DNA of 32,000 nt from Candidatus Korarchaeum cryptofilum OPF8 (GTDB lineage Archaea > Korarchaeota > Korarchaeia > Korarchaeales > Korarchaeaceae): NCBI RefSeq assembly GCF_000019605.1, contig NC_010482.1, positions 1,320,001 through 1,352,000 of the forward strand, in the 5' to 3' direction. How positions within the stretch are numbered: position 1 is the first letter of the stretch; each line of letters starts with the position of its first letter. Shown here piece by piece: positions 6,217 to 11,772 of this stretch. The notes under the pieces were generated by a model. The model had not been told where the DNA came from. It did no database searches and worked only from the letters and a program-made list of their open reading frames with translations. Position numbers and translations under genes: made by a program.

Positions 6217-6356
6217 AACTGGCCCGTCCTTCCTAGCTGGGATTTAAAGGTGTGTGTTTTTACATTTTAATCATCCTCTCAGATAAATTTTAGGGGGCAT
6301 CCGGTGGGCATCGATGGGCTCCCCTCTATGATATGCTTCAAGAATGCGACGCTAAG

Positions 6357-6364
6357 TTTATATA
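6357..6364 (+). promoter_or_regulatory. candidate TATA box of the rRNA operon promoter
   Basis: TTTATATA is preceded by a purine-rich BRE-like GCTAAG, about 200 nt upstream of the 16S 5' end. It is the only strong TATA-like element in the 6.21-6.52 kb spacer. Confidence 0.45.
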
Positions 6365-6562: not shown

Positions 6563-8057
<1,495 letters not shown>

Positions 8058-8072
8058 CATTATGTTTGCGAG

Positions 8073-8152: not shown

Positions 8153-8195
8153 GAGCGCTCAGCATAGTTCGAGAAGCCAAAGGCCGGCGCTGGCA
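8153..8195 (+). promoter_or_regulatory. 5' strand of the pre-23S processing helix, with a canonical BHB
   Basis: GAGCGCTCAGCATAGTTCGAGA pairs with 11751-11772. A 4-bp AGCC/GGCT follows, then bulge AAA (8179-8181), then GGCCGGCGCTGGCA pairing with 11730-11743. Confidence 0.85.
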
Positions 8196-10225
8196 CGCTG
8201 CTACGCCGCCTGGTGGATGGCTCGGCTCGGGCGCCGAGGAAGGGGGTGGCAAGCTGCCATAAGCCCCGGGGAGCCGCAGGCAGGCTTCGATCCGGGGATC
8301 CCCGAATGGCGATGCCGCCGAGAGGCGCTCCCGGCAGGGAGCGGGAACCCCCCGAATTGAAGCATCTCAGTAGGGGGAGGAGGAGAAACCAACCGGGATG
8401 CCCTGAGTACCGGCGAGGGAAAGGGGCTGAGCTCAAACCGAACTCCCGCTCGCGAGAGCGGGTGGATGTGGGGTTGCGGGGGGATCGGGAGCCGCTGGGA
8501 GGGAAGCCGAAGTGGCCTGGAACGGCCCGCCATAGAGGGTGAGAGCCCCGTAGGCGTAACCTACCAGCGGTCCGGTCCTCTCCCGAGTACCGTGGGTTGG
8601 AATACCCGCGGGAATCCGGGGGTCATCGACCTCCAAAGCTAAATACGTCCCGAGACCGATAGCGAACTGAGTACCGTGAGGGAAAGCTGAAAAGCACCGC
8701 TGGCGCGGGGTGAAAAGAGCCTGAAACCAGGCGGTCATAGGAGCGGCGGCCCTCAAGGGCTGAAGCTCCCGAAGGAAAATGCCGCGAGGCATGAGTACGA
8801 GGGAGCGGACCGGGGTCGCCCCGTACGTCTTGAAACACGCGCCGGGGAGTTCACGGGCGTGGCGAGCCTAAGGGCTTTAAGCCCGAAGGCGGAGCGAAAG
8901 CGAGGACCCCGCAGCGATGCGAGGGGGTCGCCTCCGAAAGGGGGTTCAGTCACGCTCGTGAGACCAGAAGCCGGGCGATCTACTCCTGGGCAGGGCGAAG
9001 CCGGGTCGCGAGCCCGGTGGAGGCCCGATAGGGATGGTGAGGTGCAAATCCCTCCCGTGACCTGGGAGTAGGGGCAAAAGACCAATCTAGCCCGGCAATA
9101 GCTGGTTCCCGCCGAAGCCTCCCGCAGGAGGATCTCCGCGGAGGGTGGGGGCGTGGTAGGGCAACGATTGGGTGGGTAAGGGGCTCCGCCCCGCCACCCT
9201 CTCGAACCCCGAATGCGCCTCCCCCGTAGAAGCGGGGAGCCGGGCGGCGGGGGGAAGCTCCGTCGCCGAGAGGGGAACAACCCGGACCGGGGTTAAGGTC
9301 CCCAAGTCCTGGCTAAGTGCCGAAATCCGAAGGGCGTCTCCCTCCTAAGACAGCGGGGAGGTAGGCTCAGAAGCAGCCATCCTTTAAAGAGTGCGTAAAA
9401 GCTCACCCGCCGAGGAGGGAGGCCCCCAAAATGAGTCGGGGCTGAAGCCAGGCACCGATACCCCGGCAGCGTCCTGGAAGGGCGCTGGGTAGGCGGGCGC
9501 GCACACCGGGCGGAAGCCGGGGCGTGAGCTCCGGTGGACCGGTGTGTGTTGCAAATCCCGGCGGTAGTAGCAGCGAAGTGGGGTGAGAATCCCCACGGCC
9601 GAAAGCGCCAGGGTTCGCCGGCAATGCTTCGTCAGCCGGCGGTTAGCCGGTCCTAAGGCGGCACCCAGCTGGTAGCCGCCGAAAGGGAAGCCGGTTAATA
9701 TTCCGGCGCCACCGGGGTAGGCGGCAACGCAGGCCTCACCCCTGACGCCTCGGGCTAGGCTGAGCGGGGGCCCGCTGAGGCGGGCGACCCGTCCAAGCGC
9801 TTAAGGCCGCCGAGAACCGTAATGGTGAGAAGCGGCTGAAGGCGCGATGGGGGCCCCTTTGGGGGCCTTCGGCTCATGCCTGGGGACCTTGAAAAGGGGG
9901 TGGGGAGCGATCCCCGGTGCCCGTACCGAGATCCGACACAGGTGCGCTGGCTGAGAAGGCCTAAGGCCTATCGGTCCTAACGCGGGAGAGGGAACTCGGC
10001 AAATTGGCCCCGTAACTTCGGGAGATGGGGTGCCTGCGTTCCTCCGAAAGGGGGTCCGCAGGTCGCAGTGACAAGGGGCGCCCGACTGTTTAACAAAAAC
10101 ATAGTTCCCCGCGAGCCCGCAAGGGTGTGTACGGGGGATGAGGCCTGGCCAATGCCGGTACCTGAAGCCCCGGTACAACGGGGTGAAGGGCCGGTGAAAG
10201 CCGGGAGTAACTCTGACTCTCTTAA

Positions 10226-10770
10226 CGGCAGGTCCCCACTGCCCCCCGAAAGAAATTTTAATCCCTCAGTGAGTGAAAGCGCAATGGACGGAAGGATAGA
10301 AGGGTATGTGGTGGGATTCATAGATGCTGAAGGGAGCTTCTCTGTGAGCATAAAGTTACAGAAAGGCCTCAGATATGGAATCCGCCTCGATCCTGTGTTC
10401 AGTGTAACGCAGAGGGAGAGGGAACCTATAGATACGATAATACATGTGTTAAACGCGGGCAGGATCATAAGGAAGCCGGGGCAACCGCATTTATATCTGC
10501 TGGTAATAGACAGTATATCGGAGCTCATTGGAAAACTGATACCCTTCTTGGAGAGGAACATCGACTTACTGTGTGCGAAGAAACACCAGTACATTCTCTT
10601 CAGGGATATCGTGAGAGGGCTCCATGAAGCCCGACATAAGGATATCGGGGGGATGTATGATCTTGTGATTAAGGCTTATGAGCTCTCCGATTTAAGTATG
10701 AAATCGAATAGGAGGAGGAGTTTGGATGATGTTCTCTTAATGCTTAAGCAGTGGGGACCGCCGGGGGAAA
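10226..10770 (+). mobile_element. archaeal-type (splicing-endonuclease/BHB) intron in 23S rRNA domain IV
   Basis: The conserved 23S sequence ...GACTCTCTTAA|GGTAGCCA... is split by 545 nt. The intron ends form a perfect 12-bp helix (GGTCCCCACTGC at 10231-10242 with GCAGTGGGGACC at 10748-10759) plus CGGC/GCCG, flanked by A-rich 3-nt bulge candidates. The junction is ambiguous by 1-2 nt because of AA repeats. Confidence 0.85.
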
Positions 10771-10775
10771 GGTAG
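10284..10775 (+). CDS. single-motif LAGLIDADG homing endonuclease encoded in the 23S intron
   Basis: The ATG at 10284 lies in frame within track ORF 10068..10775. It gives MDGRIEGYVVGFIDAEGSFSVSI... with one LAGLIDADG-type motif (GFIDAEGSF) and 163 aa. The part of the ORF upstream of 10226 is rRNA exon. Confidence 0.85.
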   Translation: MDGRIEGYVVGFIDAEGSFSVSIKLQKGLRYGIRLDPVFSVTQREREPIDTIIHVLNAGRIIRKPGQPHLYLLVIDSISELIGKLIPFLERNIDLLCAKKHQYILFRDIVRGLHEARHKDIGGMYDLVIKAYELSDLSMKSNRRRSLDDVLLMLKQWGPPGER

Positions 10776-11381
10776 CCATATGCCTTGCCGAATAAAAATC
10801 GGCGTGCATGAATGGCTTAACGAGGTGCCCGCTGTCCCCTCCCGCGGGCCGGTGAACCCGCATCCCGGTGTACAGACCGGGACGCCCCAACGGGGAGAGA
10901 AGACCCTGTGGAGCTTCACTGCAGCCTGGTCTTGTGGTACAGCTGGGGATGCAGAGGGTAGGCGGGAGCGATGTGGCCACCCTCCAGGGGGTGGCCGAAG
11001 CGACGATGGAACACCGCCCTTCTCCAGCTGTACCACTAACCGCTCCGGCGGGACAGGGCCAGGTGGGCAGTTTGGCTGGGGTGGCACGCCCCTGCAAAGG
11101 TATCAGGGGCGCCCTAAGGCGAGCTCAGGCGGGACAGAAACCCGCCGTAGAGGGCAAGGCCAAAAGCTCGCCTGACTGGATCCCTAAACGCGTGGGATCC
11201 AGGGGTGAAAGCCGGGCCTAGCGAACACTCGAGCCCTCTCGGTGAGGGCCGGGTACGACAAAAAAGTTACCCCAGGGGTAACGGAGCTGTGGCGGGCGAG
11301 AGTCCCCATCGGCCCCGCCGCTTGCTTCCCCGACGTCGGCACTGCCCATCCTGGGGGTGCAGCAGCCTCCAAGGGTGGGGA

Positions 11382-11415
<34 letters not shown>

Positions 11416-11729
11416 CAGAACGTCGCGAGCCAGTTCGGTTTCTCCCTGTTGGGGCTGCAAGGCCGCCTGAGGGGAAGGGACCCTTAGTACGAAAGGAACG
11501 GGGTGTCGGGGCCTCCGGTGTACCGGTCGTCCGAAGGGGCGACGCCGGGTAGCCGCGCCCCAGCCGATAAGGGCTGAAAGCATCTAAGCCCGAAGCGGCC
11601 CCCGAAAATAGGCGGCCTCGCCCCTCGTGGGGTTAGGGCGCGGGTAGAAGACCCGTTCGATGGGGGGGTGGTGTAAGGCAGGAGCTTCGGCGGACTGCCT
11701 CAGCCTACCCCTCCCAAAGCCCGAGCGCA

Positions 11730-11772
11730 TGCCAGCGCCGGCCGGCTAATTCTCGAACTATGCTGAGCGCTC
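11730..11772 (+). promoter_or_regulatory. 3' strand of the pre-23S processing helix (BHB)
   Basis: The order is TGCCAGCGCCGGCC, GGCT, bulge AAT (11748-11750), TCTCGAACTATGCTGAGCGCTC. It is complementary to 8153-8195. Confidence 0.85.

Follow-up and report, generated by a model that had tools for sequence, protein, structure and literature searches.

A mobile 23S rRNA intron of Candidatus Korarchaeum cryptofilum whose homing endonuclease gene ends in the downstream exon, and a candidate promoter within it

The 23S ribosomal RNA (rRNA) gene of Candidatus Korarchaeum cryptofilum OPF8 is interrupted by a 545-nt insert carrying a LAGLIDADG homing endonuclease gene, the open reading frame (ORF) of which reaches a stop codon only in the rRNA exon downstream. 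This raises the question of which RNA acts as messenger RNA (mRNA) for the enzyme: a transcript initiated inside the insert, the rRNA precursor, or the excised insert as a circle, which the frame would almost exactly fill according to a preliminary description made from the sequence alone. The locus lies in a 32,000-nt stretch (contig NC_010482.1, positions 1,320,001 to 1,352,000), referred to here as the window, whose numbering is used throughout; all features described are on the + strand. It is close to certain that the insert represents an intron of the bulge-helix-bulge (BHB) type at 23S position 1927 and a member of the published L1927 family (Vdi141.L1927, I-ApeKII). For the explanation as a whole, in which this intron's enzyme is made from the transcript of an internal promoter and not from the circle, we consider the balance to be slightly favorable.

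The insert, its splice signal and its family

The archaeal 23S rRNA gene occupies positions 8189–11736 (Rfam RF02540, 2603 bits, full length), with the archaeal 16S rRNA gene (Rfam) at 6563–8058, and is 3548 nt long compared with the 2987 positions of the Rfam archaeal large subunit (LSU) model. When the region 10050–10950 is aligned to this model it is collinear except for one 546-nt insertion at model positions 2030/2032. Read directly, CTCTTAA extends up to 10225 and GGTAGCC starts at 10771, which gives an insert of 545 nt (10226–10770 in the convention of the preliminary description). Because exon 1 ends with AA and the insert with AAA, the junction is ambiguous by 2 nt and can be placed in three ways. 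The splicing endonuclease cuts after the second nucleotide of each bulge, and cleavage there gives an intron at 10225–10769; the sequences of the spliced RNA and of the circle are the same in both conventions. In the numbering of E. coli rrlH (T1926, A1927, A1928 and G1929 at CCTAAGGTAGCG) the junction within TTAA|GG is at 1927/1928 with BHB cleavage and at 1928/1929 as originally drawn, in a universally conserved stretch directly 3′ of helix 69.

The ends of the insert form a perfect 12-bp helix (10231–10242 with 10748–10759) and a 4-bp helix, H3 (CGGC at 10226–10229 with GCCG at 10760–10763). The 5′ strand of this closing stem (10226–10242) thus consists of CGGC, an unpaired A10230, and the 12 nt GGTCCCCACTGC, and both helices are present in minimum-free-energy (MFE) folds. 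The 3′ strand (10748–10763) is followed by GGGG (10764–10767) and the bulge AAA (10768–10770), and the segment 10748–10770 also encodes the protein tail QWGPPGE. The intron GGGG pairs with CUCU of exon 1 (10219–10222) in a central 4-bp helix, which is flanked by the 3-nt bulges UAA (10223–10225) and AAA; it is this helix, to which the preliminary description does not refer, that gives the motif its canonical form. An exon-exon helix, H1, joins 10216–10218 to 10771–10773 through 3 bp (U-G, C-G and A-U), with a mismatch and one further pair beyond. The exon sequences on either side, TCTGACTCTCTT|AA at 10212–10225 (read directly, with its pairing kept in 41/41 relatives) and GGTAGCCATA at 10771–10780, are the left and right parts of the 24-bp homing site; the latter also contains the 3′ strand of H1 and the borrowed TAG at 10773–10775. 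A canonical archaeal BHB has two 3-nt bulges on opposite strands with a 4-bp helix between them at the exon-intron junctions (PMC6379350), and the window sequence contains two 3-nt bulges, a 4-bp core and flanking helices on both sides. No group I or group II intron was matched at the Rfam gathering thresholds, nor at E≤1 on 10215–10780.

Relatives were gathered by scans of GTDB genomes and Joint Genome Institute (JGI) metagenomes, which gave 96 loci (identified below by L numbers). A 1075-nt set in which the intron boundaries are wrong (L041, L043, L044, L047 and L061) was left out of the BHB and palindrome statistics. In all 41 distinct homologous introns, which are from other archaea, pairing is kept at the four central positions and at the first four of the inner helix, each bulge has 3 nt, and inner-helix (H3) pair 4 covaries (G-C in 37, C-G in 2, U-G in 2). 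Between the window and L020, the 12-bp helix shows a compensatory A-U to G-C double change by which Trp157 becomes Arg, which indicates that at this point the helix is conserved rather than the protein tail. A fold of the mini-substrate has a z of −5.9, so that the closing helix and BHB exceed chance, and the canonical BHB structure evaluates to −37.3 kcal/mol. The unconstrained mini-substrate MFE structure slips register by 1 nt because the window lineage has GGGG where the family has GGAG; the MFE fold of the whole region recovers the closing stem and not the central BHB helix. The BHB assignment rests on geometry, energy evaluation and family conservation. The preliminary description is borne out on its main structural points: a 545-nt insert splitting CTCTTAA|GGTAGCC, which the LSU alignment it had proposed for fixing the junctions returns as a single insertion at the conserved block; the perfect 12-bp and 4-bp helices; and an intron of the splicing-endonuclease type, not group I or II.

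The closest described element is Vdi141.L1927, a 586-bp intron in the 23S gene of Vulcanisaeta distributa IC-141 (Nomura et al. 2008, PMC2602781). Its product I-Vdi141I is a 169-aa single-motif homodimer with a known structure (PDB 3e54) and the target CCTGACTCTC^TTAA^GGTAGCCAAA, and both dimerisation and cleavage with 4-nt 3′ overhangs are established for it; Aeropyrum pernix has an analogous intron with the enzyme I-ApeKII (all PMC2602781). The window intron shares the 23S position, the target core CTGACTCTCTTAAGGTAGCC, a non-group-I archaeal intron type, a similar length (545 nt versus 586) and a one-motif LAGLIDADG enzyme (163 aa versus 169; E 2e-40). The reconstituted window junction, TCTGACTCTCTTAAGGTAGCCATA, differs from the published target, CCTGACTCTCTTAAGGTAGCCAAA, at −12 and +11 only. 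The element is therefore not new in kind but a further lineage of a mobile intron family already described; it adds one more lineage to the mobile rRNA introns on record and confirms the 2008 statement of their wide spread.

Other intron-encoded enzymes that act in or near this region differ in more respects. The I-CeuI intron is inserted at 1923 (PMC3315327). I-CeuI, like the window enzyme, is a homodimeric LAGLIDADG protein of the same Pfam family (2ex5, E 2.6e-8) and its target overlaps the helix-69 region, but its host CeLSU.5 is a chloroplast group I intron with a bacterial-type target, GGTCCTAAGGTAGCG, and the window junction is at 1927/1928. The earlier equation of the two insertion sites does not hold: CTAA^GG, which we take to be the I-CeuI cut site, is about 5 bp from the intron insertion point, and a cut site had been mistaken for an insertion site. 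The accompanying idea, that two intron classes share one homing site, is real, but the partner is I-PpoI and the case was published in 2008. I-PpoI is a His-Cys box enzyme of a Physarum group I intron and recognises the same sequence as I-Vdi141I (PMC2602781), namely CTCTCTTAA^GGTAGC in the rDNA; its intron, Ppo.L1925 (PMC3679873), differs from the window element in being a self-splicing group I intron of a eukaryotic nucleus that encodes a protein of unrelated fold and is inserted 2 nt upstream (1925 versus 1927). The introns of I-DmoI and I-PorI are likewise BHB introns in crenarchaeal 23S genes encoding LAGLIDADG enzymes, but at other insertion sites and with two-motif monomers; for introns of this kind, stable circular RNA has been reported (cited in PMC3326292).

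The endonuclease gene and its stop codon

The homing endonuclease gene (10284–10775) has 163 codons from the ATG at 10284 and a TAG at 10773–10775; the junction falls within its last sense codon, AGG, and the stop codon lies two bases into exon 2. Pfam reports one LAGLIDADG_1 domain (residues 10–110, E 1.2e-11) with a single motif, YVVGFIDAEG, at residues 8–17 (10305–10334). Among 41 sequences G11, I13 and D14 of this motif are invariant and A15 and E16 nearly so. The best structure match is PDB 3e54 ('rRNA intron-encoded endonuclease'; E 2e-40, residues 6–158 against chain 9–160), and a protein collection contains 40 homologues; a look-up of the exact window protein sequence gave no match. 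The window ORF is full length and retains every invariant residue and all but one of the nearly invariant ones. The ratio of nonsynonymous to synonymous change (dN/dS) is 0.07–0.25 versus the closest relatives, with synonymous sites near saturation, which indicates a working gene and not a relic. By these comparisons, the gene is intact, under purifying selection, and encodes a one-motif, homodimer-type LAGLIDADG enzyme related to I-Vdi141I. These results agree with the preliminary description as to the ATG, the 163 codons, the single motif and the TAG inside the exon-2 sequence GGTAGCC, with no in-frame stop at the 3′ end of the excised intron. They also agree with its prediction of a one-motif and hence homodimer-type enzyme; the domain search and the comparison with I-CeuI and I-Vdi141I that it had proposed gave the LAGLIDADG_1, 3e54 and 2ex5 matches listed above, and its pointer to I-Vdi141I is matched by 3e54.

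The sequences of relatives show that the exon-borrowed stop is a conserved trait of the family and not a peculiarity of the window intron. Forty-five distinct introns are located exactly at the L1927 junction (3′ ends ...CCCGGGAGAAA|GG), and in 28 of them the LAGLIDADG frame crosses the 3′ BHB strand and ends in ...PGER or ...PGDR on the same exon TAG. The 28 come from Desulfurococcales, Zestosphaera, Odinarchaeota, Thermoproteota and metagenomes. Among the hosts of the 45 introns are Zestosphaera, Desulfurococcales, Ca. Calypsonella, Odinarchaeota and Thermoproteota, as well as Ca. Wolframiiraptor and Ca. Terraquivivens, with relatives in Thermoproteota, Odinarchaeota, and Aigarchaeota-like and Bathyarchaeota metagenome-assembled genomes (MAGs). 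The ORFs of L071 and L073 pass the 3′ splice site in another frame (...PPGRKVAKCLV) and extend beyond the 20 nt of exon 2 examined, and the homologous protein P0026 has a tail of the same kind, ending ...EVAKCLAG. Read by eye, the L071/L073 frame stops in the helix-71 loop, where GGGTAAG supplies a TAA. Most other L1927 introns contain pseudogenes with early stops, and a separate stop ahead of the stem occurs only in the Caldivirga/Vulcanisaeta-type subfamily; Caldivirga-type relatives of I-Vdi141I use a TAA of their own, whereas the window ORF stops on the exon TAG. The cloned form of I-Vdi141I ends ...NVSTSL, in contrast to the PGER tail of the window protein. Since the last five residues of the window protein fall outside the part aligned to 3e54, the PGER-type tail is probably a tolerated by-product of the overlap between gene and splice signal. 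What is modestly new here is this overlap, the giving up of an own stop across most of the family, and the logic of expression that goes with it.

More distant relatives of the enzyme (28–35% identity) are found in L012–L015, which are from candidate phyla radiation (CPR)/Saccharibacteria and other bacterial MAGs, and in L011 (Thermoplasmatales). The occurrence in bacterial candidate phyla fits the insertions with homing endonucleases reported in CPR rRNA genes (PMC11270868).

A candidate internal promoter and the alternatives to it

Upstream of the endonuclease gene the intron contains a candidate promoter (10249–10263), composed of a purine-rich tract AAAGAAA resembling a B recognition element (BRE) and a TATA-like box TTTTAATC at 10256–10263. 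The TTTTAA core is at 10256, 27–28 nt before the ATG. The same type of element is present at nine other promoter segments in the window (eight transfer RNA (tRNA) genes and the 16S gene), in which a purine-rich tract, usually AAAG/AAA, precedes a box of the TTTAA/TTATA type. This box ends 19–25 nt before the gene in seven tRNA promoters and 31 nt before it in the eighth, and in host protein genes of the window the box core is most often 25–31 nt before the start codon, a leaderless geometry that the intron ORF shares. Counting both strands of the 32 kb, the 8-mer TTTTAATC has only three occurrences: at 6265, upstream of the 16S gene, in the promoter of tRNA-Ile, and within the intron at 10256. 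The position of the intron box fits an archaeal promoter of a leaderless mRNA, for which a BRE/TATA box centered about 26 nt upstream of the start codon at fixed spacing is expected. A 16-column position weight matrix built from the nine host promoters was over-fitted, with the intron box below its 9-bit cut-off, and was replaced by the exact-word counts and spacing comparisons given here.

The window lineage provides four distinct sequences (window/L017, L019, L020/L099 and L098); neither the box nor the 22-nt distance from TTTAA to ATG changes among them. The spacer itself differs at about half of its positions, indels are found only upstream of the box, and the Shine-Dalgarno (SD)-like sequence of the window, GTGAGTGA, is not conserved. 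A conserved box with a variable spacer of fixed length and no SD element is the signature of a promoter for leaderless mRNA, the majority class in the crenarchaea studied (PMC4983044), and the lack of conservation of the SD-like element argues against internal initiation on either the rRNA precursor or a circle.

In the mechanism that we propose, the tRNA-splicing endonuclease would cut both 3-nt bulges of the precursor, the exons would be ligated, and the intron would be released and probably circularised. Separately, the BRE/TATA promoter at 10249–10263 would direct transcription from a start at or adjoining the ATG at 10284, giving a leaderless mRNA. Starting downstream of the 5′ BHB strand, such a transcript could not be spliced; it would extend into exon 2 and end translation at the invariant UAG of GGUAGC, which would explain why the family has lost its own stop and why the ORF runs through the 3′ BHB strand. 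The enzyme would cut intron-less alleles at CTGACTCTC^TTAA^GGTAGCC (predicted substrate CTGACTCTCTTAAGGTAGCCATA, with a TTAA 3′ overhang), and repair would copy the intron in. For this internal-promoter route of expression the chances appear about even. If it is correct, the leaders suggest a way in which archaeal genes embedded in rRNA are expressed, through an intron-internal promoter and a leaderless, unspliceable transcript.

Several points weigh against it. The promoter is proposed from sequence resemblance and from only four independent lineage sequences, and an A/T-rich box in an intron of 47% GC could be fortuitous or have a part in RNA folding. An internal promoter might be occluded by strong read-through transcription of the rRNA operon, and about 960 nt of 23S sequence would follow the gene in the proposed mRNA as a 3′ tail. 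The first part of exon 2 showed no terminator by eye, no scan for terminators having been run. A full-text literature search gave no relevant statements on promoters or translation for ORFs of archaeal rRNA introns, the classical expression papers being outside the text searched. In addition, circularisation of archaeal introns is established, and excised ORF-bearing 23S introns are reported to form stable circles (Dalgaard and Garrett 1992, as cited in PMC3326292).

The circle is thus probably a real molecule that could act as mRNA, and the codon arithmetic of the preliminary description is correct. Across the ligated junction (...GGGGGAAA-CGGCAGG...) the frame reads ...PGE-TAGPHCPPKEILIPQ and continues for 15 codons to a TGA at 10270–10272, giving 177 codons that end 11 nt before the ATG and a predicted product with the C-terminal peptide QWGPPGETAGPHCPPK instead of the QWGPPGER of the exon-stop product. 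Of the 28 exon-stop introns, 27 likewise have a circle frame that ends close to or at its own start codon, 25 of them before it. What does not stand is that the circle-filling ORF is a selected feature, of which these comparisons give no sign. Among the same 28 introns the extension adds 8–27 codons and the distance between stop and start varies from −11 to 56 nt; the extension peptide is conserved only where the stem dictates its sequence. In L019, which has a 91%-identical protein, the window TGA is replaced by CGA and the frame stays open as far as a TAA that shares bases with the ATG (TAATG); the circle frame of L028 extends past its own start codon, and in L066 (Ga0190361_1007803), with 564 nt a multiple of 3, it is endless, with 188 codons and no stop. 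Shuffled window leaders have a stop in the circle frame in 47% of cases. Having no 5′ end, a circle would need SD-type internal initiation, for which the leader has no conserved element, and translation would have to pass through the two strands of a 16-bp GC-rich stem. We therefore consider it improbable that the excised circle is the mRNA of a 177-residue protein. The broader claim that a stable circular intron RNA is itself translated, as a natural circular mRNA in a prokaryote yielding a 177-residue enzyme with a tail from the 5′ stem strand, is a shade more improbable still. Were circles translated, introns of the L066 type (a multiple of 3 with no leader stop) would give tandem LAGLIDADG domains by rolling-circle translation, which would offer a natural way for single-chain enzymes to arise from homodimeric ones.

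Translation from the unspliced precursor, with internal initiation at the ATG at 10284 and termination at the exon UAG, would account for the conserved read-through as well as the internal promoter does, as the UAG is present in this RNA too. Ribosomes would have to initiate while the 3′ BHB strand is still unmade or the RNA unspliced, and translation through that strand and splicing would exclude one another on each molecule. In the window a weak SD-like GUGAGUGA precedes the AUG by 7 nt, and GGTGA precedes the start in many relatives; against this, the SD-like element is unconserved in the window's own lineage whereas the TATA-to-ATG distance is conserved, and the precursor route leaves a host-type BRE/TATA box with leaderless spacing unaccounted for. 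Internal initiation lacking an SD element is, to our knowledge, not a recognised route in archaea, and we regard the precursor as an unlikely source of the enzyme, if the least unlikely of the alternatives to the internal promoter. That the ORF is a decaying, unexpressed relic whose missing stop is part of the decay is very improbable. Premature stops mark roughly one in four relatives as clear pseudogenes, as fits the life cycle of homing endonuclease genes (PMC2602781), but the window ORF is full length with its key residues kept, and its dN/dS is low with synonymous change saturated. Finally, we give almost no credence to a 545-nt expansion segment retained in mature 23S rRNA or to a group I intron: nothing was found in favor of either, and both are contradicted by a canonical BHB with covariation, by the experimental placement of this endonuclease family in an intron at this exact site (PMC2602781), and by an insertion in a universally conserved stretch with no Rfam group I/II match at E≤1.

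Two candidate promoters of the rRNA operon itself are situated upstream of the 16S gene, TTTTAATC at 6265–6272 (about 300 nt upstream) and AAGTTTATATAG at 6349–6364 (about 200 nt upstream).

Leader palindromes in relatives and neighbouring 23S sites

The window lineage has a shorter leader (58 nt) and lacks a 22-bp palindrome, CTGRCTAYC-nnnn-GRTAGYCAG, that most other subfamilies carry; it is absent from window positions 10226–10283 and from the lineage as a whole. In at least 22 of 41 distinct L1927 introns the palindrome takes up the interval that separates the TATA-like box from the start codon (24 of 41 at a looser cut-off of 14/18 positions); carriers include L040 (intron offset 42–63, CTGGCTACCAATAGATAGTCAG), L023, L006, L034, L028, L003, L008, L069 and L066. 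It has the form of a symmetrised copy of the homing site: 15–18 of the 18 outer positions match the half-site consensus, a level reached by 0–5 of 300 shuffles, and it is the best target-like 22-mer in each carrier intron, with the 11+11 spacing kept. The central four bases are never TTAA. Its variants at −8 (A/G), −6 (T/C), +6 (A/G) and +8 (C/T) are substitutions that I-Vdi141I tolerates, and the changed positions −2 and −1 are ones at which it does not (PMC2602781).

By analogy, the palindrome may be an operator that the enzyme binds but does not cut, for autorepression. I-TevI of the phage T4 td intron has such an operator, an uncleaved homing-site-like sequence used for autorepression (PMC3943268), and is likewise a homing endonuclease with its own intron promoter, which makes it a model for the relatives' palindrome; it differs in being a GIY-YIG enzyme of a group I intron with a bacterial promoter, and the window intron has no operator of this kind. 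If the palindrome is an operator, it would be the first case of an autoregulated LAGLIDADG homing endonuclease. An alternative reading is an RNA hairpin, with which G·U-compatible changes agree. The possibility that the palindrome acts as an RNA guide by pairing to the two exons was rejected, as the variants fit the substitutions tolerated by the enzyme better than they fit exon complementarity.

Two neighbouring 23S sites at which mobile introns are found elsewhere appear to be intron-less in the window. At 10111–10135 the sequence GCGAGCCCGCAAGGGTGTGTACGGG is uninterrupted; it is closely similar to the I-PorI homing site, GCGAGCCCGTAAGGGTGTGTACGGG. The helix-71 hairpin at 10787–10803, which we take to be the I-DmoI-type intron site, reads GCCGAAUAAAAAUCGGC in place of the near-universal GCCGGGUAAGUUCCGGC (Rfam consensus GcCGgcUAAgUgcCGgC). 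This odd loop is identical in all window-lineage relatives (L017–L020) and is absent from the other hosts, and the change might make the lineage immune to an I-DmoI-type enzyme.

In many relatives additional insertions occur no more than about 25 nt from the L1927 intron, either downstream in the loop of helix 71 or upstream in that of helix 69. These follow GCCGGGTAAG in L001, L025, L034, L035 and L085 and GCCGGGTAT in L029, L077 and L078, and are just upstream of CTCTGACC in L027, L029, L078 and L041–L047, such that up to three introns are present within about 40 nt of mature rRNA.

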